Positions 5,671 to 63,822 of a stretch of DNA of 64,000 nucleotides are shown in pieces. Made by a program: the position numbers and the translations under genes. The number at the start of each line of letters is the position of its first letter. Positions within the stretch are counted from its first letter, which is position 1. The notes under the pieces were generated by a model that made no database searches, had not been told where the DNA came from, and worked only from the letters and a program-made list of their open reading frames with translations. Location of the stretch: contig OZ241963.1 of assembly GCA_965204115.1 (NCBI GenBank), forward strand, positions 121,475 to 185,474, read 5' to 3'. The stretch is from Minisyncoccota bacterium. Lineage in GTDB: Bacteria; Patescibacteriota; Minisyncoccia; Phycocordibacterales; JABAAK01.

Positions 5671-5865
5671 TGGTTGACCATTTGATTATTTTATTGTACA
5701 GTTATATCACGAACAAAATAGTATGTCAACGGGTTGCTTTTTTTGATTTTTTTGTTATTATATATGTAAAGTACTGAGGGCAAGAAGCCTGATGTATGTT
5801 GCTGTACATTACCCAAGTAAATTAACAATATGGTCGCTTGACGACCCCAAAAGAGGAGGATTGAC

Positions 5866-6372: not shown

Positions 6373-6452
6373 CTGCACATTATGTGAGGGCAGGTAAGTA
6401 TGTTTTTCAACAGTACTGCCTGTCCTTTCTTTTTTGTAGAGGAGATGATGAA

Positions 6453-7076: not shown

Positions 7077-7095
7077 CCATGCGAAGCGGCGAGCG

Positions 7096-7129
7096 ATAAA
7101 AAACGGACTGACTTTCAGTCCGTTTTTTC
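7096..7129. terminator. Bidirectional intrinsic terminator (AAAAAACGGACTGA-ctt-TCAGTCCGTTTTTT)
   Basis: Palindromic hairpin flanked by an A-run and a T-run. Confidence 0.6.
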
Positions 7130-7159
7130 ATTGCTAAAAAATGTTACAATAGTAGGTGT

Positions 7160-9764: not shown

Positions 9765-9855
9765 GGTGTTGATAGTAGGGTTATACACATTGTTCACAGG
9801 GTGTGCGTAATGGTTCAAAGACACGCGTTCGGTTGTGCGTGGTACCATACCAATA

Positions 9856-10407
9856 ATGCAGTATGATTTCAGTGCTTTTTCTGAAAGAGAGAAAGAAACA
9901 CTCGCGTGGTTGGGTGATGAATATGCGCAGATACAATCGGGGAGAGTTACCACTGCGCTGCTGGATCGAGTTGCCGTTGCTGCCTATGGCGCGAAGACCG
10001 CATTGAGTCATTGCGCTGCCATTGCGGCGGAGGATCCGAAGACGCTGACGGTAACACCTTACGATCCTACGCTGTTGCCTGAGATAGAAGCGGCACTTCG
10101 GGAGCAGGTGCCGTCTATGAGCGTCGCAGCCGGTGAGACAACAATACGGGTTATTTCTCCTGAGCTAACCGGTGAGAGGCGGGCGGCGTTGGAAAAGATG
10201 GCGCGGGAACGAGCAGAGGAGGCGAAACAATCCCTTCGCGGCGCTCGGGAAAAAGTGATGTCGGACATAAAGCAGCAGAAAGCAGATGGAACGCTTTCAG
10301 AAGATGAAGAGTTTGCCGTTAAAAAGGAATTGCAGGAAAAAATTGACGCGGCAAACAAGGCAATAGAAGAAATGTGTGAGAAAAAGGTGCAAGATACACA
10401 GCTATAG
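9856..10407 (+). CDS. frr: Ribosome recycling factor
   Basis: 184-aa protein with the RRF pattern (MQYDFS...YAQIQSGRVTTALLDRV.V..YG......A.I...D..TL.V.PYD...) and a Lys/Glu-rich C-terminal half. Confidence 0.85.
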   Translation: MQYDFSAFSEREKETLAWLGDEYAQIQSGRVTTALLDRVAVAAYGAKTALSHCAAIAAEDPKTLTVTPYDPTLLPEIEAALREQVPSMSVAAGETTIRVISPELTGERRAALEKMARERAEEAKQSLRGAREKVMSDIKQQKADGTLSEDEEFAVKKELQEKIDAANKAIEEMCEKKVQDTQL

Positions 10408-38425: not shown

Positions 38426-38615
38426 CCAATGTAAAGTGTTACATTTTTATGGTGTATAATTTGTAATTCTTTTCGTCCTGCCATGGACTCTTCAGGCGAC
38501 TGGCATCAAGCCGCTAAGAACTGCTACAAATAGGGATCTGTTTATCTGATGTATATAATAGCATATAAATACCTAAATGTCAAACCCCTGTATAGCAGCC
38601 CTTAAAAATACTCCC

Positions 38616-38880
38616 TTTTATCCACAAACCCTTATTTCACGGGCTATTTTAGTGATATACTCAGTATATATAAAAGGCACCTGCCCGCAAGAGGTTGACA
38701 ATTGTGTTGTGTTGTGGTATAGTAATATCAGTGATGGGGATTTAGACAATTCTCTTAAGGTGTATTTGGGAAGCGGCAACCTATTAAATAGAGGGGAAAC
38801 CTCTACATTGTGTATTAAGCGCAATCCACAAGTCACCTTAAGAGAGTTGTATAAATGTATAGTTTGTATGACTTTGGTCT
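38616..38880 (+). promoter_or_regulatory. Copy A of a duplicated promoter-leader cassette: a 137-bp conserved 5' block (incl. TTATCCACA and a sigma70 promoter), a 75-bp unique insert bracketed by a 14-bp inverted repeat, and a 44-bp conserved 3' block
   Basis: Near-identical to 62125-62381 except for the insert. Promoter TTGACA(38695-38700)-17 bp-TATAGT(38718-38723). IR caattctcttaagg (38747-38760) / ccttaagagagttg (38836-38849). Confidence 0.8.
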
Positions 38881-39085
38881 TTTACAAGAAAAAGGGAGGA
38901 CAAGTACATAGTCCACATAACATGATTGTTTCTCAGTCAGGTTATGCGGGCTGTGTACATGAGGTACATGAGCGACCAAAACCTTTAAACTCCTGGATTT
39001 CAACCTACAGCACGCTTTGTCTGCATATGGGATGTATGCAGCGTGTTTGGGGTTGATTTCCGTATTTCCCATAGGAGGGAAACAC

Positions 39086-39658
39086 ATGTCTGTTAAAATT
39101 GCAAAAAAAGTCACGAGCGCTCACGTTGAAAAGTCCATATCTCGCCGCAACCCGTTTGGCCTTCGTGAAAATCCTCTCTCAATCGCGCTCCAAGAGGCGA
39201 TTAATGAGTACAGAGGGGGGTTTGAAGAAGAGCCCTATGAATTTTGGAAGCTCAGAGGGGCTAATGTTTCCTATGACGAGGACGGGAGAATGGCACTGGT
39301 TGTCCAGGACGGCTCCTATGTTCGGGGAAACACGTACCGGACATTGGCCTATTTCACCCCGAGAGCTATTGAGCTCTATCATGAGTGGGTTGCCCAAAAA
39401 GGGCGCCTCGGCAGATTTGCCGCTCAACGCACTGGGTGGACGCAACCTGGTGTTGAAGGCCCGTCACTGCCGTCTTGCGTCATCGTAGTCCAAGATGCTG
39501 ATAAGTTTTTGGAAACATCTTGGGACGCGGGCACGATTGATATCGTCTCCGTGAAAGACTATGAAAATGAGCAACTTCTCGCCGAGAAACGGGAGGAGTT
39601 GCGGGAGTGCTGGCGGAACATCCGTCGGCTGAAGAAGGAAATCAGGAAGATCTCTTAA
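39086..39658 (+). CDS. Hypothetical protein (family A/B, copy A), 190 aa, cytoplasmic
   Basis: SD GGAGGGA 7 nt before the ATG. Shares ENP[LV] and G..V.[YI]D[ED][DN].[RK][MI].L...[DE]G motifs with the copy-B protein. Charged helical C-terminus. Confidence 0.6.
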   Translation: MSVKIAKKVTSAHVEKSISRRNPFGLRENPLSIALQEAINEYRGGFEEEPYEFWKLRGANVSYDEDGRMALVVQDGSYVRGNTYRTLAYFTPRAIELYHEWVAQKGRLGRFAAQRTGWTQPGVEGPSLPSCVIVVQDADKFLETSWDAGTIDIVSVKDYENEQLLAEKREELRECWRNIRRLKKEIRKIS

Positions 39659-49953: not shown

Positions 49954-50004
49954 GAAGGCATCAACTCTCAGTTCGGGTATAGTGCTGGTGAGTAAGCGGA
50001 ATAC

Positions 50005-50390
50005 TATGTCGCACAATATACCTTTTGCGACATTGTGCAAAGCACAATGTCGCAAAAGGTCTCGTAGATTATGCGACAAATAAATTGTCGCATAATCTAC
50101 GGCCAAAGGTTCCGTATATTGTGCAACAAGCAAGTTGTCGCACGATATACGGCTAAACCCTCCATTAAAGTGTTGGCTTTGCACAATGTCGCAAAAGGTT
50201 TTGAATATTATACGACAAACAAGTTGTCGTATAATATTCAACCACCTACCAATCAAATAACATAGGTGGAGGACGCAAGCGGTATGTCGCAAAAGGTTCC
50301 GCACACTGTGCGAAAAGCAGCAGGTTTTTATAATCTATGACTTCCCTGCTGAAGTATAAATTTTGTGGCATGTCGCACAATATTTGACCT
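50005..50390. repeat. Array of long inverted repeats / half-sites with a TGCGACAA...TTGTCGCA core (at least 4 full palindromes and ~12 half-sites)
   Basis: Perfect palindromes at 50021-50059 (18-bp arms), 50064-50100 (16-bp arms) and 50201-50241 (18-bp arms), plus an imperfect one at 50114-50150. ATGTCGCAAAAGGT recurs three times and ATGTCGCACAATAT twice. Confidence 0.85.
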
Positions 50391-50394
50391 CTTT

Positions 50395-50613
50395 TTACCA
50401 AAAGATAATCTGCAGGAGGTTCTTTTTTGGCGGCTGGCAATCACGATGAGGATTTTCTGCAGTTTGCACGCAGTCGTAGAAATCCCATGATTCACCTTTG
50501 CCCACCAGGCGTGGCCATACGAAAATTTGTGCTGCTATGAAAAGAACACAGAAAAGAAAGTTGTACAGCAGAATGAATTTTAAAAAGACGATAAATTTAT
50601 TTTTCCTGGCCAT
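50395..50613 (-). CDS. Possible small single-TM membrane protein downstream of glyS
   Basis: 72-aa ORF from an internal Met (MARKNKFIVFLKFILLYNFLFCVLFIAAQIFVW...), 27 nt after the glyS stop. No SD identified. Confidence 0.3.
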   Translation of the reverse strand: MARKNKFIVFLKFILLYNFLFCVLFIAAQIFVWPRLVGKGESWDFYDCVQTAENPHRDCQPPKKNLLQIIFW

Positions 50614-50641
50614 CAAAGGCAGTATACCGCTTGATTTTTTG

Positions 50642-52006
50642 CTATCGTGCGGCGTCTTGTATATACTTCGGCAACTCTTGTATAGACATGCGCTCCTGCC
50701 GCATTGAATCCCGCTCACGGACGGTTACTGTCTCATCCTTTAGCGTGTCATAATCAATGGTTATCGCGTATGGTGTGCCGATCTCATCCGCCCGGCGGTA
50801 GCGCTTCCCGATTGCACCGGTTTCGTCATAGTAGACACTATAGCGTTCCCCTGCCAACTTGGCATACACTTCTTTGGCTTTTTCAGGATGGCCATCTTTA
50901 CGCATCAACGGCAATACTGCGACCGTCATCGGCGCGAGAGACGGATGCAACCGCAGCAGCACTCGCTCAGTGCCGTCTTCAAGTGTCTCTTTATCATACG
51001 CATCACAGAGTACCGCCATAAACAGCCGGCCGACACCGATAGAGGTTTCTATAATGTTCGGTACGATATGCTCGTTTGTCTCCTGATCAAAGTAGGTGAG
51101 TTTCTGCCCCGAGTGCTCAGTGTGCTGAGTCAGATCATAGTTTCCCCGATCGTGAATGCCTTCCAGCTCTTTCCAGCCGAATGGATATTCATACTCAATA
51201 TCAACCGCGGCTTTTGCGTAGAACACCAACCGCTCGTGCGGTGTTACCCGCAAGTGTTCTTCCTGAATACCGATTGCTTTAAGCGCCTCCAGCCGTAGTG
51301 ATAAAAATTCATCAAAATGCCGCTTGCTTTCCTTCTGGTGAAAATACTGCATCTCCATCTGTTCAAACTCCCGGGTGCGGAATAAAAACTGTCGCGGAGA
51401 GATTTCGTTACGGAACGCTTTCCCGATCTGTGCGATACCGAAGGGCAGTGGCGGGTGCATAGTATCCACCACCTGTTTAAAGTTGACATAAATACCCTGG
51501 CAGGTTTCACCGCGGAGGTAGGTAACCTCATCTCCCTCAAAAGTGCCTAAATTTGAAGTAACCAGCAGATTTTGAAACTCCGGATCGGATAAGTCATTCG
51601 GATCGCACCCCGCAACTTTTAAATTTGCTTTATGCTCCGCAAACACTTTGCGAAATTCCTCAATGCTCATCCGTTCATCAGCAGATACGCCGATTTCTTC
51701 AAGGAGGTGGTCCGCGCGGAACCGCTTTCCGGTCTTCTTGCAGGCCGTTACCGGGTCAGCAAACCCTTTCGTATGTCCGGACGCTTCCCAGATTTTCGGA
51801 TGCATCGTAATACCGGAATCCAATCCGAAAATGTCCGGGCGAGTACGCACCATGGTGTGCCACCATCGTTGCTTCAGGTTATTCGCCAGCTCAACCCCGA
51901 GCGGTCCGTAGTCATACACTCCCGCAAATCCGTCATAAATCTCAGAAGACGGGAAAACAAACCCCCGCCGTTTTGCCAGCTGTAGTATCTCGTCAAGGGT
52001 AGCCAT
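50642..52006 (-). CDS. glyQS: Glycine--tRNA ligase (alpha2 homodimeric GlyQS type)
   Basis: N-terminus MATLDEILQLAKRRGFVFPSSEIYDG, class-II motifs, C-terminal anticodon-binding domain. Confidence 0.9.
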   Translation of the reverse strand: MATLDEILQLAKRRGFVFPSSEIYDGFAGVYDYGPLGVELANNLKQRWWHTMVRTRPDIFGLDSGITMHPKIWEASGHTKGFADPVTACKKTGKRFRADHLLEEIGVSADERMSIEEFRKVFAEHKANLKVAGCDPNDLSDPEFQNLLVTSNLGTFEGDEVTYLRGETCQGIYVNFKQVVDTMHPPLPFGIAQIGKAFRNEISPRQFLFRTREFEQMEMQYFHQKESKRHFDEFLSLRLEALKAIGIQEEHLRVTPHERLVFYAKAAVDIEYEYPFGWKELEGIHDRGNYDLTQHTEHSGQKLTYFDQETNEHIVPNIIETSIGVGRLFMAVLCDAYDKETLEDGTERVLLRLHPSLAPMTVAVLPLMRKDGHPEKAKEVYAKLAGERYSVYYDETGAIGKRYRRADEIGTPYAITIDYDTLKDETVTVRERDSMRQERMSIQELPKYIQDAAR

Positions 52007-52352
52007 AATGCTTTCAGTATGCCATATTCGGCGCCCTGTCAGTCAGGACGAAATTGCCTCTATGGTATACTATTTTCGGGGAGGTGATATTTGTGCAACA
52101 TCAACAAGAAGAACAAGTATCTTCGCATTCTGCGGAAACTGCGGAGGAAGACCGCCCTATAGGTGCCGCTCCGACACTCCACATCGGCAATTTTCCCCTT
52201 GACGCAGTGACTGTCAGGTGGCTTGCTGCTTTCGCGGCTATCGGCGTTTCTGGTGATGATACTTTTGGCGGTGGTAGTGTTGACAGTATAGTAACTTAGG
52301 ATGTCTCGTATAAAAACCCGAAAACTCTCTATGAGTTTTCGGGTTTTTGAAA

Positions 52353-52940
52353 TTAGTAATACACTTTGAACCGTCGTACCAATTCCCTACTTGCCTCTGT
52401 TTCTCCGGACGAACAGGAGCTGTATCCTTTCACCTCTATTGACGATTCTATCAATCCGTCATTGCAAATATTTGTGCCGACAGTAGCACCGCTCACACAT
52501 ACTTTTTTAACGGTGACACGCGCGCAAGGCACGCTTGAAACATCTTTCAAATCCTTTACTGTGGATTGTATGACAGCGAATTGATAGGTTCCGGTTCCGG
52601 CGGGGTCTGTGTCACGCTCGTCTTTTGACGGAGCATAGGCAGACCAGTCACCCACCTTCCGCACTTGATAGAGATCGCCACAGTTAATTTCATCATATTT
52701 TCTTGTGGATATTTTTTGAAAAGCGGAACGGCGAAAATCATTAAAGAGTGCACACTCTAAAGCAGAATTCGCTATTCGTATTGCAATTTGTGACCGCCTG
52801 CCGTATGACTGCCGAAGAATATCCTTCTCAAGAATAGAAAAAAGTGTTATGCCAATTGCCAACAAAACTGCAGTAACAAGAACAGTAACAACTAACACTG
52901 ACCCACCATTCTCATATTTTTTTGTATAAATCTTTTTCAT
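52353..52940 (-). CDS. Membrane-anchored hypothetical protein, possible pilus-associated (minor pilin-like)
   Basis: N-terminal hydrophobic anchor (SVLVVTVLVTAVLLAIGITLF), then a Cys-containing beta-rich domain. Adjacent to the prepilin gene. Confidence 0.4.
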   Translation of the reverse strand: MKKIYTKKYENGGSVLVVTVLVTAVLLAIGITLFSILEKDILRQSYGRRSQIAIRIANSALECALFNDFRRSAFQKISTRKYDEINCGDLYQVRKVGDWSAYAPSKDERDTDPAGTGTYQFAVIQSTVKDLKDVSSVPCARVTVKKVCVSGATVGTNICNDGLIESSIEVKGYSSCSSGETEASRELVRRFKVYY

Positions 52941-52944
52941 AGTG

Positions 52945-53673
52945 CTACTTTTTTCTTTGTATCCACTCAAACATCGCCTCCTGCGTCTCCACTCGCCTTA
53001 TGGTGTCCGTTTTGTCAGACCACGAGATACACGGCACTACAACGACATACTGCACCTCATCATCGTTCCGCGCAATGACGGTGTTGAGTGTAGTTGTAAA
53101 TGCGTTGTTCGCTTTCGCTTTGTTGCCGTCACAGGTGTCCGTTCGTATGTTGCCACGAGTGCCGCCGATTGACGCAATGCCGGCAACAGCTCCGCTATAC
53201 ATCCCATTGTTCGGGGCGGGCGTGCCGCACTCCCCTTGCATGGTTTTGTCTGTGACGAGACCGCGGTTGGGATCGTCACGGACAGCGAAGCATTCAACGG
53301 TGCAATAATTTTTGAGATAGGTTTCGCGATTTTCCAATATCCAATCAGCGGCAGATATCACACATGAGGCGAACATATTCGTAGACTGCGGGTCTGCAAG
53401 CGTGTCAAACCAATCCCCGCCACCGGGATCAAGAAGATCTGAATCCCGCGTATACCGAACATACTCAACAATCTCCTGCACTAACAACCCGGCAGTAACC
53501 CTGTTTTTCGTCAATGCATTCTGTATCAAATGATCTGATACAACAGAAACCGGTAAAAAGCCGATGATGGTGATAACTGCTATCGCCACCAACACTTCCA
53601 CCAATGTAAACCCCGTTTTCCCGTTTTTTGTCCGCGCATGCGCGAAAAAATTCTTACTAAAAAAGGAGACCAT
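52945..53673 (-). CDS. Type IV pilin / pseudopilin (prepilin with class III signal)
   Basis: Leader ...KNGKTG|FTLVEVLVAIAVITIIG with the conserved Glu at +5. C-terminal Cys pair. Confidence 0.75.
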   Translation of the reverse strand: MVSFFSKNFFAHARTKNGKTGFTLVEVLVAIAVITIIGFLPVSVVSDHLIQNALTKNRVTAGLLVQEIVEYVRYTRDSDLLDPGGGDWFDTLADPQSTNMFASCVISAADWILENRETYLKNYCTVECFAVRDDPNRGLVTDKTMQGECGTPAPNNGMYSGAVAGIASIGGTRGNIRTDTCDGNKAKANNAFTTTLNTVIARNDDEVQYVVVVPCISWSDKTDTIRRVETQEAMFEWIQRKK

Positions 53674-53757
53674 ACTCGTATAGCATAGTATACCAAACAA
53701 TACATGCAGTTTGTGCGTGGAAGATCCCCTTTTGCATTCCGTTGAGGGTTTCGGCCT

Positions 53758-55137
53758 CTATCCCTGCTGCATGCCGAGTGACTGACGCAGTGTTTCGCGG
53801 ATTATTTTTCGCTCATCCCACGGTACTGACTCCCCGTTAACTTCCATCGTCACTTCCGCGCCTTTGCCGGTTACGATAACAACATCACCCGCTCGCGCCA
53901 GAGAGAACGCTTTTCGCATTGCCTTTCGTCGGTCCAGTTCCACATACCATTCGGCATCGCTGTTTTTTCGAATGCCGGCAACGACCGCAGCGGCAATCTC
54001 CTCCGGATCATCAAAAAAAGGATCTGCATCCGTGATAATTGAAATATCGGCACATCGCCCGGCAACTTCGCCGATTGCGTCCGCGTTGTACCGCCAACGA
54101 GATGCTCCGACTGCCCCGACAACTACGATCAGCCGTCCGCCGTCCGAAGACACATACTGTCGCAATGCCTCACACACACTTTCAACGCTCAATGGCTCGT
54201 GGGCGTAGTCGCAAAACACCTGAAACGATTGCCCGACCTCTATCCGCTCCAATCGCCCCGGAAGTGTTGCCGTGGCGAACGCGTGGTTGAGCCGTTCCGG
54301 CGAGGCGTTGCAGTACCGTTTTGCAAGCAGGATTGCCGGCACAGCGTTGCGTATGGTGATAACCCCCGGTAATGGCACCGTATATCGGTCACCCTCCAGC
54401 AGAAATGCGTTTTCAGCACTTCCCTCTTCAGCACGAATACTGACAGACGCCTTCGCACTGAAGCCGACCAACACCTCCTCATTCAACGGCATTGCCGCAA
54501 TCTTTTGAAAATACTCAACATTACTGTCGTCAGCGTTGAGGATGATGCAGCGCTTTACCGCCTTGCCTCCCAGTGTTTTTTGCGGCGATCGTGCCTGCTG
54601 TCTGAAGAGCCGCCCCTTGGCGTGCCGATACCGCTCAAAGGTTTTGTGTGTCACCAAATGCTCCGGCGAAAGATTGGTATACACCAATGAGTCGTACCAT
54701 ACCCCAAGCACCCGAAACTGTCGCAACCCCTCGGATGGCGTCTCAATGACCGCATACCGACATCCCGCGTCGACCATCTTTCGCAGTTGCTGTTGCACAT
54801 ACCCCCGACCGGGCAGTGTCATATGCCGTTTATTCACAAACACCTTCTCACCAATCCGTACCTCTGTCGTTGAGAGCAGCCCAACCTTCTCGCCGGCAGC
54901 AGCTAGTGCGGTATGGATAAACGAAGCCGTTGAGGTCTTCCCTTTTGTGCCGGTTACCCCGATCACCACCAGCTCTTTTGATGGCTGTCGATACACCAGT
55001 ATCGCGACAACGGCAAATACAAAATGGTACCCCAACAGCAAAAACTCCGGTGTCAGCCGCGCTACAAAACGCTTCACCTCCGCCAACCGCTTTTGTAGAG
55101 TGCCCTTTGTCATATAGCACAAGTATACACCCGCCAA
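53758..55137 (-). CDS. Mur ligase family protein (MurE/MurF-like UDP-MurNAc-peptide ligase)
   Basis: P-loop GVTGTKGKTST, Mur ligase middle and C-terminal domains. 459 aa. Confidence 0.7.
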   Translation of the reverse strand: MAGVYLCYMTKGTLQKRLAEVKRFVARLTPEFLLLGYHFVFAVVAILVYRQPSKELVVIGVTGTKGKTSTASFIHTALAAAGEKVGLLSTTEVRIGEKVFVNKRHMTLPGRGYVQQQLRKMVDAGCRYAVIETPSEGLRQFRVLGVWYDSLVYTNLSPEHLVTHKTFERYRHAKGRLFRQQARSPQKTLGGKAVKRCIILNADDSNVEYFQKIAAMPLNEEVLVGFSAKASVSIRAEEGSAENAFLLEGDRYTVPLPGVITIRNAVPAILLAKRYCNASPERLNHAFATATLPGRLERIEVGQSFQVFCDYAHEPLSVESVCEALRQYVSSDGGRLIVVVGAVGASRWRYNADAIGEVAGRCADISIITDADPFFDDPEEIAAAVVAGIRKNSDAEWYVELDRRKAMRKAFSLARAGDVVIVTGKGAEVTMEVNGESVPWDERKIIRETLRQSLGMQQG

Positions 55138-55146
55138 AGCAGTGCG

Positions 55147-55464
55147 TTATGTTATTGCTGTAATCAGAACCTCACAAAACGGCTGTCGATGCCCGTAGTG
55201 TCGTCGATAGTTTGACTTCGCTTTAAACCGCACCACCGATATTTTCTTATGCCGAGCGACTTTTTCAATCGTACCCGTCACCTTCTTCCCTTCCACATAT
55301 GGCGCGCCAACCTCCGTTTTTTCCCCATCGTCAAACAGCACCACCTTATCAAACGACACCGAATCACCCTCCTGACACTCTTTCAGCAACTCAATCATAA
55401 CACGATCACCATCGCTTACCGCATACTGTTTCCCCCCCGTTTCTATCACCGCAAAGTTACTCAT
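55147..55464 (-). CDS. rplU: Ribosomal protein bL21
   Basis: FAVIETGGKQYAVSDGD...IEKVARHKKISVVRFKAKSNYRRHYGHRQPF. Start at MSNFAV. Confidence 0.9.
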   Translation of the reverse strand: MSNFAVIETGGKQYAVSDGDRVMIELLKECQEGDSVSFDKVVLFDDGEKTEVGAPYVEGKKVTGTIEKVARHKKISVVRFKAKSNYRRHYGHRQPFCEVLITAIT

Positions 55465-55529
55465 AGTTATTAGGCAGTATACACTATATTTTGCTGAGAA
55501 ACCCATCTCGCACAGAGTATCCACAGTGC

Positions 55530-55558
55530 TTGACAAAATATGAAATATCCTTTATAAT
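55530..55558 (+). promoter_or_regulatory. Consensus sigma70 promoter TTGACA-17 bp-TATAAT on the + strand
   Basis: Exact consensus hexamers with a 17-bp spacer (aaatatgaaatatcctt). The 260-nt region it drives ends at the terminator at 55786. Confidence 0.65.
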
Positions 55559-55646
55559 ATAGGCATACATGGCAAGGTCGCTCTTTGCTCTATGCTGCAC
55601 CCTAAACCGTTTAAAAACACCTATTATTCACTAAATACACCCTATT

Positions 55647-55760
55647 ATGAAGTTGTTATCGAAGATATTAGCGGCTGTCGTCGTCATTACCCTGACGGCT
55701 GTCATTGCCGCACTTACCACCGCGTCAACCATTATGTTTTACAGCGTTGCTTACGCATAA
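55647..55760 (+). CDS. 37-aa hydrophobic peptide MKLLSKILAAVVVITLTAVIAALTTASTIMFYSVAYA (small membrane protein or type-I-toxin-like)
   Basis: Complete ORF between the consensus promoter and a strong terminator. It is a single predicted TM helix with no good SD. Confidence 0.35.
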   Translation: MKLLSKILAAVVVITLTAVIAALTTASTIMFYSVAYA

Positions 55761-55785
55761 AAACATAGTTGATGCGATGCCAACA

Positions 55786-55829
55786 AACCAAAACGACCGA
55801 GAATTATTCTCGGTCGTTTTGGTTTTTCT
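55786..55829. terminator. Bidirectional intrinsic terminator (CCAAAACGACCGAGA-attat-TCTCGGTCGTTTTGG + TTTTTCT)
   Basis: 15-bp perfect stem between the small + ORF and the pilC (minus) stop. Confidence 0.75.
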
Positions 55830-55842
55830 CCGGGGCAAACTA

Positions 55843-57039
55843 CTACACTGATGAGGATATAGAGTATATCGGGATGATGACTGAGCCGATGAGCAGTCCG
55901 ACACCTAATCCGAGGAAAACAATGATGGTCGGCTGGATAAGGTCAAGCATGGTATCAATAGTATTGCGGAGCTGTTTTTCATAGATGTCGGCGATGGTCT
56001 CAAGAATGTGCTGGAGTTCCCCCGCCTCTTCTCCCACCCGCACAATCTGTGCGACGCTGTTGCCGATATATTCACGCCTCGCCATGGTGTCGGAGAGCTT
56101 GACTCCTTGCTGTACTTCAGCACCCATTTCACGGACAACCTCTCGGTAGACGGTGTTGACCATGCTGCGCTGTAAGATTTGCAGTGAAGAGACAATGGGG
56201 ACACCGCTGCCGAGCATAACGCTGAGGTTGCGGCAAAACCGCACCAGGAAAAACTCTCTAAACATATTTCTTACTAACGGTATATTAACCAAAAAATTAT
56301 CATAGGCTTTTCTACCGTCTTCAGTGCGAACATAGTACAAGAATCCGATGCTGGTGCCGGCGAGCAGGATGAGGATGAGAACGATGCTCTCTTTAAGAAA
56401 ATCACTGGTACCGATGACAATCTTTGTAATGAGCGGCAATTCAGCGCCCGACTGTGTCAAAATGACGGAAATTTGCGGAATGACTGTCACCATAATAAGA
56501 CCCATTACGAGAAAAAACATCACTATGACAAAGGTCGGGTAGGTTAGTGCTTTGCGCATCCTGGCGTTTGTGTCGACACTGCGTTCCAAGTGGTCGGCAA
56601 GGTATGAAAATGACCGTGACAATGTTCCCGACTGCTCACCAATCGCGACAATGGAAACAAAAAACTCTCCGAAAACATCCTGATGTTTCAGCAGGGCTTT
56701 CTCAACGGACAACCCCTGCTCAACACTCTTGGCGATATCAACGAGGACACTCTGAAAATATTTACTCTGCATATTCTCAGACACCAAAGTAAATGCCCGA
56801 AGCGCTGATATCTCCGCTTCAAATAGTGTGGCGATTTGACGGGAAAAGATAACCAAATCTTTTTTGCGCACCCGTTGAAAAATGTTCATTTCCAGAACAT
56901 TGCTTGATTCGTGCTCTAAAGAAAGCACTGTATACCCGCGATCGAGCAGGAGGCTGATGGCATTGGTGCGGCTCAGTGCCTCAAGCTGCCCGGACACCTC
57001 TCTTCCTTCTTTGTCTACAACGGTATATAAAAAAAGCAT
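55843..57039 (-). CDS. pilC: Type IV pilus / T2SS platform protein PilC/GspF
   Basis: 398 aa, three TM segments, duplicated GspF domain architecture. Confidence 0.8.
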   Translation of the reverse strand: MLFLYTVVDKEGREVSGQLEALSRTNAISLLLDRGYTVLSLEHESSNVLEMNIFQRVRKKDLVIFSRQIATLFEAEISALRAFTLVSENMQSKYFQSVLVDIAKSVEQGLSVEKALLKHQDVFGEFFVSIVAIGEQSGTLSRSFSYLADHLERSVDTNARMRKALTYPTFVIVMFFLVMGLIMVTVIPQISVILTQSGAELPLITKIVIGTSDFLKESIVLILILLAGTSIGFLYYVRTEDGRKAYDNFLVNIPLVRNMFREFFLVRFCRNLSVMLGSGVPIVSSLQILQRSMVNTVYREVVREMGAEVQQGVKLSDTMARREYIGNSVAQIVRVGEEAGELQHILETIADIYEKQLRNTIDTMLDLIQPTIIVFLGLGVGLLIGSVIIPIYSISSSV

Positions 57040-57055
57040 ATGGTTACTCTAACGA

Positions 57056-58141
57056 TTATAAATAGCGCGACAGTGTCTGTTTATTGGAGGCATGTAGCGT
57101 CGCGACCTCAAGCGCCACTTCATTTCGCTTCACTAAGTCAGCAAGGGACTGCTCCAAGCTGATCATGCCCTCCTCTTTGCCGGTCTGAATGGCTGATTTG
57201 ATGCTCTCTACTCTGCTCTCCCGGATGAGGTTGGCAATCGCTTCATTGTTAATCAGTACCTCACACGCCGGTATCAGCCCGCCGGATACCCGCGGCAACA
57301 ATCGCACAGCGCACACGCCGAGCAGCGAGCCGGCGAGCTGGTGTGCTATCTGTCGCTGCTGCTCGTGTGGAAATGAATCAAGAATACGATGCACCGCACC
57401 GAATGCGGAGCTTGAATGTACCGTTGATAGTACCAAATGCCCGACCTCCGCGGCGGTCATAACCGCCTGCATGGTTTCAACCTGGCGCATTTCACCGATC
57501 ATCAAAATATCAGCGTCTGTTCGCAGCGATGTATCAAGCGCGGCGCGAAACGATGTTGCATCCCACGGGATTTCCTGCTGTGTAATGATTGATTTTCGGT
57601 CATTAAAAATAAATTCAATAGGGTCTTCAATGGTGAGGATGTGTTTGCGCATTACCTCATTGCAGTGATTGACCATTGCCGCGAGTGTTGTGGACTTTCC
57701 GTTGCCCGTCGCGCCCACAATTAAAAACAGCCCGTCCGGCTCGTGCATCACCTCTTTCAATACCGGCGGAAGGTTCAGCTCTTCCAAAGTCCGTGCTGTT
57801 TCCTGCACCAGCCGCATCGTTACGGCGATGTTCCCCATCTCATAGTACACCGTAACCCGGAAATTCACTTTCTTGTCCTGCTGCGTAGTGTGCTTGTAAC
57901 TGAACATCAGGTATTTCTGCTCCTGCAATACCGTCTCCGCATTTTCCATACGCGAACCGGCGATGAGTCGAAAAAATTCTTCTGTGTCTTTCGGCGTAAG
58001 AACTTCCTTCTGAATAAACGGTACTAATTCCCGCTGCACCCGAAACAGCGGTTTTGTGCCGGCAATCATATGCACATCAGATCCACCGCGCAAAACCAAG
58101 GTGTCAATGTAATCCTGCAATTCATTGTTATACTCCATCAC
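57056..58141 (-). CDS. pilT: Type IV pilus ATPase (PilT/PilB family; size fits the PilT retraction ATPase)
   Basis: Walker A GATGNGKST, Asp box and His box (GHLVLSTVHS), Walker B LMIGEMR. 361 aa. Confidence 0.8.
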   Translation of the reverse strand: MMEYNNELQDYIDTLVLRGGSDVHMIAGTKPLFRVQRELVPFIQKEVLTPKDTEEFFRLIAGSRMENAETVLQEQKYLMFSYKHTTQQDKKVNFRVTVYYEMGNIAVTMRLVQETARTLEELNLPPVLKEVMHEPDGLFLIVGATGNGKSTTLAAMVNHCNEVMRKHILTIEDPIEFIFNDRKSIITQQEIPWDATSFRAALDTSLRTDADILMIGEMRQVETMQAVMTAAEVGHLVLSTVHSSSAFGAVHRILDSFPHEQQRQIAHQLAGSLLGVCAVRLLPRVSGGLIPACEVLINNEAIANLIRESRVESIKSAIQTGKEEGMISLEQSLADLVKRNEVALEVATLHASNKQTLSRYL

Positions 58142-58190
58142 CCCCAGTATGACACATTCTTATCCTATGAAGCATGCTATCAACATATCG

Positions 58191-59360
58191 CTATGCCTTC
58201 TTGGCGATTGGTAACAACGCACGGATACGGCGTACTAACGCCCGCGCTGCTTTCCGTGCTGTTGTGGGCAGGACACCGATGCGGAGTGATTTTTCATTGG
58301 ATTGGTTACAGGCACTCCCTGTAGAAACTGCAAACCCTTTCGTATCCAGCAATGTGGCGAGGTATGCGTGGTTTGTATCAGGAAACGAAACATAGAGTAG
58401 ATGCGGCGCGAGCTTTTTCCAATCAGAGGTTTTCACCTCTTTCGCCGCTTTTTCAATGCCGTGTATGTGGGTGTCGGGCATCCGGCGACCGAACTCCTCG
58501 GCAATGGTGTTGCGCGCAAGACGCGCCTGTGCGGAGAGTTGCTTTCGCTGCTTGCGGGTTTCATCAAGGGCGATTGCAAAGCCGTAGAGCAGCGCAACCG
58601 ACGGTGTCCCCGGGCGCATATCCCATAGCGAGTGCTCTCCCTGCAGCCCCGGGTAGAGATGCGCCTTGTGCAGCAGCAGCGCACCGGCACCCTGCGGGCC
58701 GAAGCTCTTTGTGCCGTCTATCGTAACTGCGTCAACACCCAAAGAAACCGGCGAACAGGTGAGGTAAGCAGTCGCCTGTGCCGCGTCAGTGTGGATGAAG
58801 AGGGTTGGGTGTTTCTCCCGCGCGGCAGCGGCAATGTCTGCGACGGGCTGCACCACCCCATGCTGGCTGTTTACCATCTGCAGAGAAATAGCAATGGTGT
58901 TTTTGCGAAGATGCTGTGTGATGTCTGACGGCGTAAACTGCCGACCGTTTTTCGGTGTGGCAACCGTGCACTGCACACCAAGTGTTTGAAAATAGGCGAG
59001 CGGTCTATACAGCGACCCATGCTCCTCATTGCCGACAATGACATGCATAGCGTCAATAGGAATGCCCTGACGACGGGCATAGAGTACTGCCGTCCGCAAC
59101 GCGAGCAAATTTGCCTCAGTTGCTCCGGAAGTAAAGATCACATTGTCCGGCTTCACCTGATACCCCCGTGCCAGCATTGTTCGCGCCAGATCAAGGTATT
59201 CTTTCGCGTTCCGGCCCGGACTATGTGCCGCGATTGGGTTGCCTACACCGTGCTTTGTCTGCACCTGCAGTACACACTGCATCGCATGCGCAGCCTTCGG
59301 GTGTATCGGTGTGAAAGACCCGGAATCAAAGTAGTGTCGTTTTTTGAAAAGAGAAACCAT
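58191..59360 (-). CDS. Cysteine desulfurase / class V aminotransferase (NifS/IscS-like)
   Basis: PLP-lysine context (IDGTKSFGPQGAGAL), conserved TSGATEAN, catalytic Cys near the C-terminus (SGSACN). Confidence 0.8.
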   Translation of the reverse strand: MVSLFKKRHYFDSGSFTPIHPKAAHAMQCVLQVQTKHGVGNPIAAHSPGRNAKEYLDLARTMLARGYQVKPDNVIFTSGATEANLLALRTAVLYARRQGIPIDAMHVIVGNEEHGSLYRPLAYFQTLGVQCTVATPKNGRQFTPSDITQHLRKNTIAISLQMVNSQHGVVQPVADIAAAAREKHPTLFIHTDAAQATAYLTCSPVSLGVDAVTIDGTKSFGPQGAGALLLHKAHLYPGLQGEHSLWDMRPGTPSVALLYGFAIALDETRKQRKQLSAQARLARNTIAEEFGRRMPDTHIHGIEKAAKEVKTSDWKKLAPHLLYVSFPDTNHAYLATLLDTKGFAVSTGSACNQSNEKSLRIGVLPTTARKAARALVRRIRALLPIAKKA

Positions 59361-59474
59361 TATACCGCCAGCATACCACGGCAAAAACAGTGCGTTATTA
59401 CAATCTCCACAGCACCTGCCGGCAGGCATGCTCAGCGGTATGGTTGTTCACATTCGTCGTGCAAAAAATACTTT

Positions 59475-59690
59475 TTATTTGCGATTCATCATACCGACCA
59501 GTACAACAAGCGCAGCGATACCGACGATAGTGTAGAGCACAAAGCTCACCTCCGGTGTCTCCAGGAGACCGTACCCAATCCACTCAACGAGGTCAAAATG
59601 CGAACCGAACAGATTCGTCACACCGACCAATCCCCAGTTCAAACCACCGACGATGGTCAACACCTTTGCGATTTTGTAATATACATTCAT
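59475..59690 (-). CDS. DUF378-family small membrane protein
   Basis: 71 aa, two TM helices, the family-typical LNWGLVG motif. Confidence 0.65.
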   Translation of the reverse strand: MNVYYKIAKVLTIVGGLNWGLVGVTNLFGSHFDLVEWIGYGLLETPEVSFVLYTIVGIAALVVLVGMMNRK

Positions 59691-59816
59691 ATAAGGATAA
59701 AAGATCTTGTTAATAAACGCACAGATTGCTCCGTACAGAAACAGTATGCCACAGTGCTACGCGCATTACACCGGATGTGTATATGATCAATGGGACCATT
59801 GAGCGTAACGACAGGT

Positions 59817-60782
59817 CTAAAGTGTCTGCTCACCCTGAAACGAGCTTCGCAGCATTTTTTCTGCCGCTTCTGTCTCGGTCAGCGTCCGCTCCTTCTGCTC
59901 TTTCTGCGGGAAGTATCGGTGCCACAGGAGCAACACAGACGGTGCGAAGAAAAGTGACGAGTAGGTTCCGGCCACTACACCGGCAAACAGTGCAATGCTG
60001 AACCACTGCGTTGCTGACACCAGTATAAACAGCAGCACGAGCGGAGTAACCGTGGAGACCGAAGTATACAGCGAGCGTCGCAAACTGGTTCGCACGCCGT
60101 AATCAACGGTTTCGGCAAAGGGTTCCTTCTTCCCCTTCTCACGATTGTTTCGTAGACGATCGCGCATACGATCAAAGACCACGATCGTGTCGTTGATAGA
60201 GTATCCGAGCGTTGCCAGGAGCGCAGTCACAAACAGCGTGTCAATCGTCGCTGTCGTGAATGGTGCGATAATCGCAAATAATCCCAACGGAATGATTGAA
60301 TCGTGTACCAGCGCGAAAGTCGCTGCGACCCCGTACTTCCACGAAGCAACCGGACGGGATGCCTTCCTGAACACAAAAGAGATATAGATGATGATGATGC
60401 CGACCGCGACCAGCAGCGCGATTATTGCCTTGTACAGCAACTCCCGACTGATAGACGGAGAAAATGATTGGTACTCTTTCACCTCAAACGCTCCGATTTC
60501 CTCCGTAATATCGGCTTTGAAAGTACTGTACTCCTCAGCGTCTAATGAGCGCGTAGTGAAGGAGTATTCGGTATCGGACATGCGATGTGTTTCCGCCTCA
60601 AGCCCCGCATCACTCAGGCGACCTGCCACCCCCTGCTGCGCCTCCGTGAACGCCACCGTCAGCTCAGCGCTCCCGCTGAACTCCGGCGCGATGTTCGGCC
60701 CGATAACAAAGGTGCATACCACGGACAAAATAATCAGCCCGATTCCGATGATTGTGTGTATTTTTGCGTGTTTACTTACCAT
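59817..60782 (-). CDS. secF: Protein translocase subunit SecF
   Basis: 6-TM SecF topology with the conserved D..I..DRMRDRLRNN region. Confidence 0.85.
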   Translation of the reverse strand: MVSKHAKIHTIIGIGLIILSVVCTFVIGPNIAPEFSGSAELTVAFTEAQQGVAGRLSDAGLEAETHRMSDTEYSFTTRSLDAEEYSTFKADITEEIGAFEVKEYQSFSPSISRELLYKAIIALLVAVGIIIIYISFVFRKASRPVASWKYGVAATFALVHDSIIPLGLFAIIAPFTTATIDTLFVTALLATLGYSINDTIVVFDRMRDRLRNNREKGKKEPFAETVDYGVRTSLRRSLYTSVSTVTPLVLLFILVSATQWFSIALFAGVVAGTYSSLFFAPSVLLLWHRYFPQKEQKERTLTETEAAEKMLRSSFQGEQTL

Positions 60783-60791
60783 ACGATATTC

Positions 60792-62075
60792 TTAGTGTAT
60801 ATACCACCGCTGCAGCCGCTTGCTGAACAGCCGGGACGATGACCGCAAAAATAGCCGCGTTAGGACATACGCGGAAAACATACTGATGAAGACACCGATG
60901 ATGAAGGCGAAAGCGAACCCTTTGATGATAGAGGTGCCGAACCAAAAGAGCAGGAAAGCAATGATGATGCTCGTCAGGTTTGCGTCCCGAATTGCCACCC
61001 ACGCCCGCGCGCATCCGCGCTCTATTGCCGTCGCACGCGACTCCCCTCTTTTAATCTCTTCTCGCATGCGTTCAAAAATGAGTACATTCGCATCAACTGC
61101 AAACCCAATAGACATAATAAAGCCGGACAGCCCCGCCGCTGTCAGCACAATCGGCACCCCCTTGAATATCGTCAGCACCATCACGCAGTACACCGTCAGC
61201 GCCACCACCGCAACCGCCCCGACCGAACGATACACCACCAAAAAGAGGAGTGCGATGAGCAGTAGTGCGATGAGCCCGGCAAACACACTGTTCTCTGACA
61301 CCTCCGCGCCGAGTGACGGATTTACCGTCAATGTTTCAGCCAGCTCAATCGGCAGCGGCAATGCCCCGAGGTTTAGCCCGTCCACCAACTCCTTTGCCGA
61401 GTCCAGGGTGAAGTTCCCCTGTATCTGCGTTGTACCGCCGGTGATTGGCTCATTGATAACCGGTGAGGAGATAACACTCCCGTCAAGAAAAATTATCAGC
61501 CGCTGCCCGACATTCGCCCGCGTCACCTCCCCGAATATCTTGCCGCCCTCGCCGTTAAAGTGCAGTACCACTATCGGCTCGTTCGTCAGCGTCCCCCCGA
61601 CACCCGGCAAAAACTGCACCTCCGCAGAAGTGATGTGTGTCCCCTGCAATCCGGTGTCTATGATCTCTGCCGACTCACCGGCCAGTATTTTAAATTCAAG
61701 ATACGGTGTCTCCCCGATTGCCCGAGTCGCCTCATCGGTATCCGTCACCCCCGGTAGCTCAACAACCAGCCGATGCGCCGCCGCATTAGCGCCGATCCCC
61801 AGCCCCGTCACCGTGTATACATTCGGCTCAGACACTCCGAGCGCATTTACCCGCTGCTCAATCACCCGCTGCAGCGCGGACATCCGCCTCGATATCTCCC
61901 CCTCCGGCACTTCCGAGACATCAGCGGTGTAGGTTACCTGGGTGCCACCGGCAAGATCAAGCCCGAACGAAAACGGAAATCGCCCCACATCATACACATA
62001 CAATACCGCCAATGCGACCGTAACGGCAACAACGCCCAAACTGATAACCCACGGTGAAACAACCCTTTTTTTCAT
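60792..62075 (-). CDS. secD: Protein translocase subunit SecD
   Basis: N-terminal TM, large periplasmic domain, 5 C-terminal TM segments (LDLAGGTQVTY...). Directly upstream of secF. Confidence 0.85.
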   Translation of the reverse strand: MKKRVVSPWVISLGVVAVTVALAVLYVYDVGRFPFSFGLDLAGGTQVTYTADVSEVPEGEISRRMSALQRVIEQRVNALGVSEPNVYTVTGLGIGANAAAHRLVVELPGVTDTDEATRAIGETPYLEFKILAGESAEIIDTGLQGTHITSAEVQFLPGVGGTLTNEPIVVLHFNGEGGKIFGEVTRANVGQRLIIFLDGSVISSPVINEPITGGTTQIQGNFTLDSAKELVDGLNLGALPLPIELAETLTVNPSLGAEVSENSVFAGLIALLLIALLFLVVYRSVGAVAVVALTVYCVMVLTIFKGVPIVLTAAGLSGFIMSIGFAVDANVLIFERMREEIKRGESRATAIERGCARAWVAIRDANLTSIIIAFLLFWFGTSIIKGFAFAFIIGVFISMFSAYVLTRLFLRSSSRLFSKRLQRWYIH

Positions 62076-62124
62076 ATTACTCTGTTATTGTATCACAAGA
62101 AAAAAGTGCTTACTGCAGAAGCGA

Positions 62125-62381
62125 TTTTATCCACAAACCCTTATTTCACGGGTTATTTTAGTGGTATATTAGGTATAAGTAAAAAGGCACCAATCCATAA
62201 GGGGTTGACAATTGTGTTGTGTTGTGGTATAGTAATATCAGTGATGGGGGTTTAGACAATTCTCTTAAGGGTGTTCCGCGGAGAACACGTTAAAAAAATA
62301 ATGTATAATTTGTGTTTCTTATCTGTATAGGATACATCCTTAAGAGAGTTGTATAAATGTATAGTTTGTATGACTTTGGTC
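62125..62381 (+). promoter_or_regulatory. Copy B of the duplicated promoter-leader cassette (conserved 5' block, 67-bp unique insert, identical 44-bp 3' block)
   Basis: TTATCCACA at 62127-62135. TTGACA(62205-62210)-17 bp-TATAGT(62228-62233). IR caattctcttaagg (62257-62270) / ccttaagagagttg (62338-62351). 110 of 111 nt identical to copy A across promoter + 5' transcript + 3' block. Confidence 0.8.
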
Positions 62382-62617
62382 ATTAGCAATTAAAAAAGAA
62401 GAAAGGGAAAGGATTGGAAGGTGTGTATACTATCTCTCCCATAACAGTATTGCTCAATGCAGTAGTGTTGTGGGAGGGATGGCTGAATAGCTCTGTTGCT
62501 TATTCAAAATTCACACCATCCCATGTGGACTCCATCGATTATTGGGCGTCCAAATTCCGGGACCACTAAGGCGAGATGCCGGTCCCACATTCCCGCGGGA
62601 TGCGGGGAGGGAATATC

Positions 62618-63166
62618 ATGAAAAAATTCAAAAGATACTATCAAGAGGCCTTTGTCTCTCAATTCAGCTTTCTGTTTCACGGGGAAAACCCCGTTGCGAA
62701 CGGATGGCTTGTTGAAGAGGTGCGGGTTTCTCGCGTCGACGAAGCTCTCCTTGAGAAGACCCCAATGTACGACGGGGCGACAGGGTCCCGTGTCGGCATC
62801 GACGACAATGAGAAAATTTTCTTGTTTGACAAAGAGGGTAATCTTCTTACTGAGGTTGAGCAAGCCGGATACTGCAGACACAATGAGTCTCACTGTGACG
62901 ACGAGGAGTGGGACGGAGAGGCGGTCGGTGAGGCGCTGCTTCGTGTCGATGCCAAAGATGTCTACTATGTTGTCACGGTCCACACGGGGTACAGAATCCG
63001 TGACCACCACAGTGTTGGTGGGTATAGCGTCACGCTATACAAACCCCCGAAAGGGTTTTCACTCCCTGAGTGGGTCAAAGAGAGGCGTCGCCGCGCTGCC
63101 CAGGCGATCTCCGCGGAGATCGCGGAGATCGACGCCGAAGCTCAGCAAGGGTGTGTCTCCCGGTAA
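62618..63166 (+). CDS. Hypothetical protein (family A/B, copy B), 182 aa, cytoplasmic
   Basis: SD GGGAGGGAA before the ATG. Remote paralog of the 39086-39658 product, with a shared motif order and a charged C-terminal helix. Confidence 0.6.
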   Translation: MKKFKRYYQEAFVSQFSFLFHGENPVANGWLVEEVRVSRVDEALLEKTPMYDGATGSRVGIDDNEKIFLFDKEGNLLTEVEQAGYCRHNESHCDDEEWDGEAVGEALLRVDAKDVYYVVTVHTGYRIRDHHSVGGYSVTLYKPPKGFSLPEWVKERRRRAAQAISAEIAEIDAEAQQGCVSR

Positions 63167-63302
63167 ACCTAACTAACAAGATCAAACCAGATGCGTGTTT
63201 CATTCTCGTTATTAACGATTGAAGATGCAAACATGCGATGTGCTACCAACACGCGTCTGGTTAAGTAACTTCTTAATTAACTAATGGAGGCAATAGCTAA
63301 AG

Positions 63303-63746: not shown

Positions 63747-63822
63747 TCTTGGATGCTGGGCGTTGCTTTCTTAATTATTGCAACCCGGAACGAACACGCT
63801 CGGCACCCTCAAGGAGAAAAAA

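Follow-up and report, generated by a model that had tools for sequence, protein, structure and literature searches.

Why do two unrelated genes stand behind nearly the same promoter and the same outer parts of a leader, with dissimilar sequence in the middle of that leader? The question is raised by a 64,000-nucleotide stretch (hereafter the window) of contig OZ241963.1, assembly GCA_965204115.1, from a bacterium that SecD places with the Kaiserbacteria-like Patescibacteria (candidate phyla radiation [CPR]). We found that a repeated promoter and leader with a variable hairpin tip is present there in two copies, A (38616-38900) and B (62125-62402), which are in direct orientation and separated by 23.5 kb. 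The feature is best read as the reuse of a promoter and leader with putative RNA-level control rather than as a novel type of genetic switch. Specifically, we propose, with a probability of roughly 0.55, that a module of ~340 bp has been reused before two unrelated accessory genes and that RNase III most likely recognizes or cuts its invariant stem.

Two copies of a promoter and leader

Both copies have in common an upstream box, the promoter, the 31 nucleotides (nt) with which the transcript would begin, and a block of 44 nt (Table 1). An earlier, sequence-only reading of this DNA had pointed out the repeat blocks, and all of them are present where it placed them: the 3' block is identical at 44 of 44 positions, and the 110 matches in 111 nt that it counted across promoter, 5' transcript, and 3' block were essentially borne out (109/110 in our count). 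The near-identical 5' block, which it took to be 137 bp long, is indeed repeated; its length is 145 nt, and it is internally mosaic. The first 28 nt match at every position, the stretch 38616-38694 as a whole at 67 of 81, and the stretch that opens with the -35 hexamer and closes with the 5' arm of the inverted repeat (38695-38760) at 65 of 66. As the same reading held, the inserts between the blocks are dissimilar and cannot be aligned (Smith-Waterman p = 0.66). The idea that insert B is an inverted insert A was rejected after alignment with the reverse complement (p = 0.09).

Table 1. Positions in the window of the module, its parts, and the associated genes
Feature	Position	Strand	Remarks
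Block 1	A 38616-38760; B 62125-62270	+	145 nt, ~90% identity, mosaic
Distal upstream box TTTTATCCACAAACCCTTATTTCACGGG	A 38616-38643; B 62125-62152	+	28/28 the same in A, B, and relative L022
A/T-rich upstream region, then GGCACCTGCCC	A 38644-38694	+	Less conserved part of block 1
Sigma-70 promoter TTGACA-17-TATAGT	A 38695-38723; B 62205-62233	+	Promoter scan 11/12, TG at 38715-38716 (A); B identical to A (promoter scan and sequence match)
Unpaired 5' end of predicted transcript AGUGAUGGGG	A 38730-38739	+	From folds; one change in copy B
Hairpin P1, copy A	38740-38856	+	Arms 38740-38760 / 38836-38856; apex 38761-38835
Hairpin P1, copy B	62250-62358	+	Arms 62250-62270 / 62338-62358; apex 62271-62337
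Insert	A 38761-38835; B 62271-62337	+	75 nt (A) and 67 nt (B), no identity
Block 2	A 38836-38879; B 62338-62381	+	44/44 identical
Invariant A/U-rich linker	A 38857-38879; B 62359-62381	+	Same in A and B; 44/44 with 3' arm included
21 nt after block 2	A 38880-38900; B 62382-62402	+	13/21 identical
Purine tract (AAGAAAAAGGGAGGA in A)	A 38886-38900; B 62392-62413	+	Inside weak-homology alignment of A and B
Hairpin P2, copy A	38904-38958	+	Minimum free energy, + strand -28.7, - strand -18.7 kcal/mol
Hairpin P2, copy B	62430-62482	+	Minimum free energy, + strand -36.9, - strand -18.8 kcal/mol
Gene-specific leader of copy A	38959-39085	+	No similarity to copy B
Gene A	39086-39658	+	190 amino acids (aa), ORFan; then terminator-like hairpins 39748-39807
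Gene-B tandem hairpins, GAGAU/GGGAU loops	62559-62606	+	Directly before Shine-Dalgarno (SD) sequence; protein-B family feature
Gene B	62618-63166	+	182 aa; family in metagenome-assembled genomes labeled CPR or Omnitrophica, function unassigned
RNase III gene	4957-5670	+	Candidate trans-acting factor for P1 stem; Pfam Ribonucleas_3_3, Ribonuclease_3, dsrm

Conservation lies outside the inverted repeat and not in the core, extending over 130 nt to its left and 30 nt to its right. No target-site duplication adjoins the inverted repeats, whose flanks (...TTTAG / ATAAA...) are inverted and not direct. No open reading frame (ORF) is conserved across the module between the copies; a 159-aa ORF across copy A (38577-39056) has no counterpart in copy B and was therefore rejected as coding. 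Sensitive blastn and mismatch searches revealed no further copy of the module in the window, nor any in 26 fetched loci except for the one in a relative, L022, described below. An exact 20-mer of the 5' arm gave four chance matches in GTDB species genomes and JGI metagenomes, all within unrelated coding sequences, and neither the promoter nor the 3' arm had a match among viral contigs.

The upstream box holds a perfect DnaA-box-like TTATCCACA, as the sequence-only reading had noticed. A role as a replication-origin mark was rejected, since there is no cluster of such boxes and the GC-skew switches of the window track gene orientation and an apparent inversion. In the A/T-rich region that follows the box, 8 to 13 of 53 positions differ among copies. 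The TTGACA-17-TATAGT promoter that had been proposed was recovered in both copies in identical form, with the TG at -15/-14 (extended -10), and its 29-mer had no chance match in shuffles of the window. The promoter scan gave no other + strand promoter-like site between the module and either gene, and promoter spacing would put the transcript start near 38730 in copy A and near 62240 in copy B. The 17-nt spacer (38701-38717 and 62211-62227) is a triple TTGTG repeat, ATTGTGTTGTGTTGTGG, that is the same in both copies and unchanged in L022 as far as its contig end, which is unusual conservation for a spacer. A second strong promoter-like site, TTGACA-17-TATTAT with TG (11/12), occupies 38555-38583 on the - strand in the unique flank of copy A; it points leftwards to the terminator and 3' end of the gene for an SLT-domain protein and has no counterpart at copy B.

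The proteins encoded downstream had been taken for homologues that diverged almost beyond recognition, a view that did not survive comparison. With a BLASTP E value of 0.37 and an hhalign probability of 1%, proteins A and B are unrelated and not diverged paralogues, so that the module was set before different genes and was not left by a whole-gene duplication. Protein A belongs to no family in Pfam, NCBIfam, PHROGs, or PADLOC and has no homologue but itself in libraries of 5.8 billion and 1.84 billion sequences; its single-sequence AlphaFold2 model was uninformative (predicted local distance difference test score [pLDDT] of 34). Protein B has 25 homologue clusters at 50 to 63% identity, and its AlphaFold2 model (pLDDT 80) showed no fold match in the PDB. 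The upstream neighbors, the SLT-domain protein at copy A and SecD at copy B, likewise cannot be aligned, and they differ in Pfam family and strand.

Gene B, besides, has a leader motif that belongs to its own family. Tandem hairpins, composed of an outer stem, then GC-GAGAU-GC, then CCGC-GAGAA-GCGG, stand directly before the SD sequence of every protein-B family gene examined, six module-less loci included (loci with the motif include L011, ~932-980; L012, ~9822-9874; L013; L015; and L018). Across loci, 98.8% of the cells are paired, and 7 of the 14 pairs are changed on both sides. Gene B therefore has a leader of its own, with the module set upstream of it. The tandem hairpins, which had no match in Rfam, make a new candidate for a cis-regulatory RNA of this CPR/Omnitrophica ORFan family and may be an autoregulatory site. 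Two intergenic regions within the gene-B operon (63167-63302 and 63747-63822) are also strongly structured, with, for example, a 13-bp stem ACCAGAUGCGUGU...ACACGCGUCUGGU round ~50 nt. Upstream of the protein-B homologue in L018 (~440-490), a perfect palindrome ATCCACAACTTGT-N10-ACAAGTTGTGGAT lies ~25 nt 5' of the -35 hexamer and has ATCCACAA in common with the TTATCCACAAAC box of the module; as judged from this likeness, the two may represent a common operator for the protein-B gene family.

Structure of the leader RNA

The inverted repeat that brackets the insert is the lower stem of an RNA hairpin, P1, on the transcribed strand. It spans 15 nt with one mismatch in both copies (ACAATTCTCTTAAGG / CCTTAAGAGAGTTGT), close to the 14 bp with one mismatch of the sequence-only reading, and past one G/A mismatch it continues with AUUUA/UAAAU to give an invariant lower stem of ~21 bp. 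In the arms ACAAUUCUCUUAAGG and CCUUAAGAGAGUUGU the sole mismatch is a U.G wobble on the + strand (38750-38846). P1 is ~110 nt long, and its lower helix runs on upward into both of the non-homologous inserts. The result is a near-continuous double-stranded RNA (dsRNA) of 5 bp, the G/A mismatch, and 15 invariant bp, the last of which the apex extends to 17 in copy A and 19 in copy B. The minimum free energy of P1 is -46.6 kcal/mol on the + strand versus -40.7 kcal/mol on the - strand for copy A and -40.7 versus -25.8 kcal/mol for copy B, with seven G.U pairs on the + strand of the latter. Folding z scores are -5.0 for the 171-nt P1 segment of copy A (38730-38900) and -6.45 for the 163-nt segment of copy B (62240-62402). 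When shuffled inserts were placed between the fixed arms, the native ones out-folded them in both copies (insert A, z = -3.1, p = 0.008; insert B, z = -3.4, p = 0.004). The small internal hairpin formerly ascribed to insert A is present as well (38789-38805). Thus, the earlier suggestion of a closing stem around a variable RNA domain is supported by the U.G wobble, the continuation of the helix, the strand asymmetry, and the advantage of the inserts over their shuffles.

No terminator-like site was found by scanning right after P1, where the AUUUA/UAAAU base is followed by GUAUAGUUUG and not by a G+C-rich stem with a U tract. The covariance models of Rfam 15 gave nothing at gathering score and, at E values up to 10, hairpin-like chance matches only. 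Two further ideas were set aside. A match of the insert to its own leader, as an SD mimic or antisense, had been suspected from AUAGAGGGGAAAC and AUAGGAGGGAAAC, and neither the sense similarity nor the duplex energy was significant. The arms are also unlikely to be a looping operator pair, because their spacings of 90 nt (A) and 82 nt (B) are out of helical phase.

Beyond P1, the linker carries a mini-hairpin, GAC-UUUG-GUC, and is part of a region rich in UGUAU. This pentamer occurs six times in each 5' untranslated region (UTR), always in the sense orientation and twice within each of the unrelated inserts (38761, 38811, 38848, 38856, 38865, and 39033 in copy A; 62302, 62324, 62350, 62358, 62367, and 62424 in copy B). 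The three at 38848, 38856, and 38865, in the linker and 3' arm of copy A, are 8 to 9 nt apart. UGUAU is the sole 5-mer found at least twice in both inserts (p = 0.011 for any 5-mer; p = 0.0004 if limited to the 5-mers repeated in the tail), and clusters of at least four within 170 nt occur in the window at the two leaders only. Such repeats would fit a repeat-binding RNA-binding protein, for which they are a candidate site. The L012 leader of the protein-B family also has four UGUAU, with none on the other strand.

The leader after the 44-nt block had been described as ~200 nt of unique sequence. This needs revision, since a weak but significant homology between the copies runs past block 2 through the purine tract and hairpin P2 (p = 0.003). 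In a sequence-based MAFFT alignment of P2 from the two copies, 90% of the cells are paired and five pairs are changed on both sides. The homology of the purine tract and P2 means that the homologous unit begins at about -112, ends at about +225, and is conserved very unevenly along its length. The 5' UTRs as wholes are unusually structured (z = -8.0 and -9.0), and in copy A a hairpin that sequesters the SD sequence pairs UUUCCC (39065-39070) with GGGAAA (39077-39082).

Relatives and genomic surroundings

One relative, L022, has a SecD that is 97% identical in amino acids and 92% in nucleotides, with a 19% difference at the third positions of identical codons. It carries block 1 beside the flank of copy B, and its contig ends within the promoter spacer, before the hairpin, which probably reflects an assembly break at the repeat. 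The 28-nt box (28/28) and the visible -35 hexamer and spacer (24/24) are unchanged in L022. Their constancy despite ~19% silent divergence argues for purifying selection and cannot be explained by conversion within a genome. Over the variable 53 nt, 8 differences separate L022 from A and 13 separate it from B, as many as between A and B, even though the L022 flank is that of B. These distances are not tree-like and several of the differences are clustered, which suggests exchange between the copies. Of the two processes that the sequence-only reading had offered, strong constraint and recombination or conversion, both therefore seem to act.

Between secD and the module, L022 has an extra ORFan cassette of 1.1 kb (110-1245, - strand as fetched), in which a promoter and a terminator accompany an ORFan of 268 aa whose start resembles a signal peptide; a direct repeat of 26 nt, TTGT(T/-)ATTGTATCACAAGAAAAAAG, lies on either side of the cassette. 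The promoter of this cassette and its A/T-rich upstream region are a diverged relative of those of the module, standing before yet another ORFan. The gap that separates secD from the module seems to be a hot spot at which accessory gene cassettes are gained and lost. Four relatives at 85% identity (L023 to L026) have neither the module nor gene A or B at the corresponding sites, and both copies thus lie at synteny breakpoints.

A similar layout with unrelated sequences was seen in a distant relative, L005, in which a conserved 21-bp stem (GAGUGGCGAAAUGAACAUUAG/UUAGUGUUCAUCUCGCCGCUC) with an apex of 43 or 6 nt stands before the SD sequence of several ORFan genes. This locus (GCA_022563395.1, labeled Patescibacteria group bacterium) holds, at 4440-8200, an ORFan cluster with intergenic regions built of repeats, among them a 157-nt block in three copies and CCCCACACTTGAGC..variable..TCAAGTGTGG hairpins in five; the 21-bp stem is situated before start codons.

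The window has other features of interest between the two copies. The block 50000-62100 is the only one with negative GC skew, all of its genes are on the - strand, and it looks inverted in comparison with the 85% relative L024, in which SecD..T2SSF and then L25-SLT lie on one strand. The right end of this apparent inversion is module B, and its left end is an array of hairpins at 50 kb. There (49990-50380), about ten TGTCGCA/TGCGACA form four or five perfect 17- to 19-bp hairpins with 5-nt loops within the intergenic region onto which a LOG-like gene and that for prolyl-tRNA synthetase converge, exactly where the GC skew flips sign; the heptamer occurs 22 times in the window against 10.8 expected. 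For this array, protein binding, a role as a terminus-type site, and a non-coding RNA are all conceivable. Besides, a perfect 20-bp palindrome with a 1-nt spacer (AAACCAAAACGACCGAGAAT/ATTCTCGGTCGTTTTGGTTT) at 55785-55825, just 5' of the start of the T2SS-F gene, occupies the gap to the next - strand ORF (55147-55536) and is probably a bidirectional terminator.

Possible function and relation to known systems

On the reading that we favor, the DNA part of the module consists of the upstream box of 28 nt, a stretch rich in A/T, and a sigma-70 promoter of the extended -10 type that is close to consensus, and the RNA part of 10 unpaired 5' nt, P1, the UGUAU-rich linker, the purine tract, and P2, with a separate gene-proximal leader for each gene. 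Such a module would give both genes equally strong transcription and a common post-transcriptional handle. The invariant dsRNA stem of ~21 bp, or two turns, is most probably where the genome's own RNase III would bind or cut, or else a site recognized by a protein; cleavage would set the 5' end and the stability of the mature mRNA and free the apical hairpin, and the UGUAU repeats would serve as a candidate protein-binding site. The identity mosaic would then come from purifying selection on the recognition elements together with gene conversion between the copies, the latter being presumably unable to cross the heterologous apex.

Several points weigh against this proposal. The lower stem of P1 is invariant and shows no covariation, and its role as RNA consequently rests on one wobble and the behavior of the apex. 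UGUAU was spotted post hoc and was later tested without choosing the 5-mer. The copy number is small, with two full copies in the window, which covers 64 kb of a 661-kb contig, and the truncated one of L022, all in one narrow clade. Both the start site and co-transcription are deduced, cleavage is putative, and an RNase III cut is not predictable from sequence. Moreover, the identity of the promoter spacers and the identity boundaries exactly at the inverted repeat would also be expected of a recombination site at the DNA level.

Such a DNA-level switch, an inverton in which recombination at the 15-bp inverted repeats would flip or exchange a mini-cassette, had been one option of the sequence-only reading. 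Near-perfect inverted repeats do surround a short segment 3' of a promoter, the identity boundaries coincide with them, and 5' UTR switches exist in other bacteria, such as the cwpV and flgB switches of Clostridioides difficile. We nevertheless consider it unlikely here. A scan of ~60 ORFs of the window gave no invertase, recombinase, integrase, or transposase domain, and the inserts hold no consensus promoter and one weak terminator-like hairpin, in insert A only, which leaves the option with no recombinase in the window and no promoter or terminator logic in the inserts. The inserts are just 67 to 75 bp long, and one is not the reverse complement of the other; the present orientation is rich in G.U in both copies, and inversion would turn these pairs into A.C mismatches. 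A selfish or neutral repeat, either a relic of segmental duplication or an element like a miniature inverted-repeat transposable element (MITE), homogenized by gene conversion and with a functionless hairpin, is likewise unlikely. It would agree with the position of both copies at synteny breakpoints relative to the 85% relatives, with the L022 contig end inside the repeat, and with the non-tree-like distances of the three block 1 copies. However, the box and promoter core are unchanged across ~19% silent-site divergence, beyond the reach of within-genome conversion, both unrelated apices fold above chance, and the pairing of P2 is kept by compensatory changes; a MITE, too, would be expected to have a target-site duplication and a conserved core, whereas the conservation here is outside the inverted repeat.

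The other alternatives accept an RNA function and differ in what it is. A protein-controlled riboregulator or attenuator is a tentative possibility at best: a multimeric RNA-binding protein on the UGUAU of the P1 apex and linker would refold the purine tract, P2, and the SD hairpin, its binding would govern translation or elongation of both genes, and P1 would be a scaffold and not a nuclease site. Six sense UGUAU per leader, the close spacing of three of them in the invariant linker, and the recurrence of this 5-mer alone in both unrelated inserts would suit such a protein, as would the SD-sequestering hairpins and the upstream purine-rich, SD-like tract at both genes. Yet the analysis brought up no candidate for such a protein, occurrences of the motif are few, the two copies have no conserved alternative pairing in common, and P1 is not followed by a terminator. 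It is unlikely that P1 is a conserved scaffold that is processed at its invariant stem and releases copy-specific small RNAs, with the variable apex working in trans, antisense or guide-like, on targets that differ between the copies. The invariant base, the variable and well-folded apex, the very strong promoter, and the presence of RNase III would all accord with this, but the inserts neither complement nor resemble their own leaders to a significant degree, nor anything else in the window (best E about 0.8), the apices are mostly base paired and leave little free seed, and there is no partner effector gene nearby. Quite unlikely, in our estimate, is a reading in which the invariant stem and linker form a scaffold for processing and loading, with the apex as a payload that can be swapped, so that copy-specific structured small RNAs or protein-binding decoys would come from the 5' ends of accessory-gene mRNAs, with new apices installed by recombination at the inverted repeat. 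If true, bacteria would have a modular "cassette-in-a-hairpin" RNA system of a kind so far undescribed in them.

To our knowledge, gene regulation in CPR/Patescibacteria, organisms that cannot be grown alone, is almost unknown. A leader that is recognizable by its sequence and common to unrelated accessory genes, as in the favored reading of a reused promoter and leader with an RNase III site, would offer a concrete handle on it and would allow tests of ORFan co-regulation via RNase III or an RNA-binding protein and of the movement of promoters and leaders between genes. If the module is merely promoter reuse homogenized by conversion, it is an ordinary case of a described phenomenon in an under-studied lineage.

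Leader hairpins processed by RNase III are well established, as in the rnc and pnp leaders of Escherichia coli, the N leader of phage lambda, and rRNA processing stalks. The module resembles them in its long, near-perfect two-turn dsRNA stem near the mRNA 5' end and in the presence of an RNase III gene in the genome; unlike it, the known leaders are single-copy and gene specific, there is no sequence relation, and cleavage is putative here. Invertons and 5' UTR phase-variation switches, which include those of cwpV and flgB and the invertible promoters of Bacteroides, also place short inverted repeats round a segment between promoter and gene, whereas the module has no recombinase in the window, no orientation-dependent logic, much shorter inserts, and strand-specific folding of the RNA type. 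In the upstream homology box regions of Borrelia, a conserved promoter and 5' region is common to different gene families and kept alike by recombination; in contrast to the module, these regions are on multicopy prophage plasmids and have no variable-apex hairpin, and their sequences are not related to it.

Two described elements come nearest, and given these, the statement of the sequence-only reading that no described element has this architecture was too strong. The Correia repeat enclosed elements (CREE) found in Neisseria show an association with sigma-70 promoters and affect the expression of numerous unrelated genes; in 5' UTRs, their inverted repeats form mRNA hairpins that RNase III binds or cuts (PMC2649163). 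The module shares the combination of a promoter with an inverted-repeat hairpin in the 5' UTR, the role of RNase III being predicted here. CREE are bounded by their inverted repeats and have a conserved core, a target duplication, and unrelated flanks, whereas the module varies in its core, is conserved on either side of the repeats, and lacks a target duplication. Putative mobile promoters are similar non-coding sequences of more than 50 nt and at least 80% identity before non-homologous genes with non-homologous upstream neighbors; the two-member family is their most frequent kind, and duplication mediated by recombination is among the routes proposed (Matus-Garcia, Nijveen, and van Passel, 2012; PMC3488235; PMC3575422). 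The module exceeds 50 nt at 80% identity or more, and neither its downstream nor its upstream coding sequences align. It differs in that its blocks lie 207 to 470 nt (A) and 237 to 493 nt (B) before the ATG, outside the -50 to -150 range of that screen, and in that it includes a structured leader RNA of ~230 nt with a non-conserved middle segment. By this comparison, the module corresponds operationally to the concept of a putative mobile promoter, extended by a structured leader, and in its predicted working it comes closest to the Correia elements of 5' UTRs.

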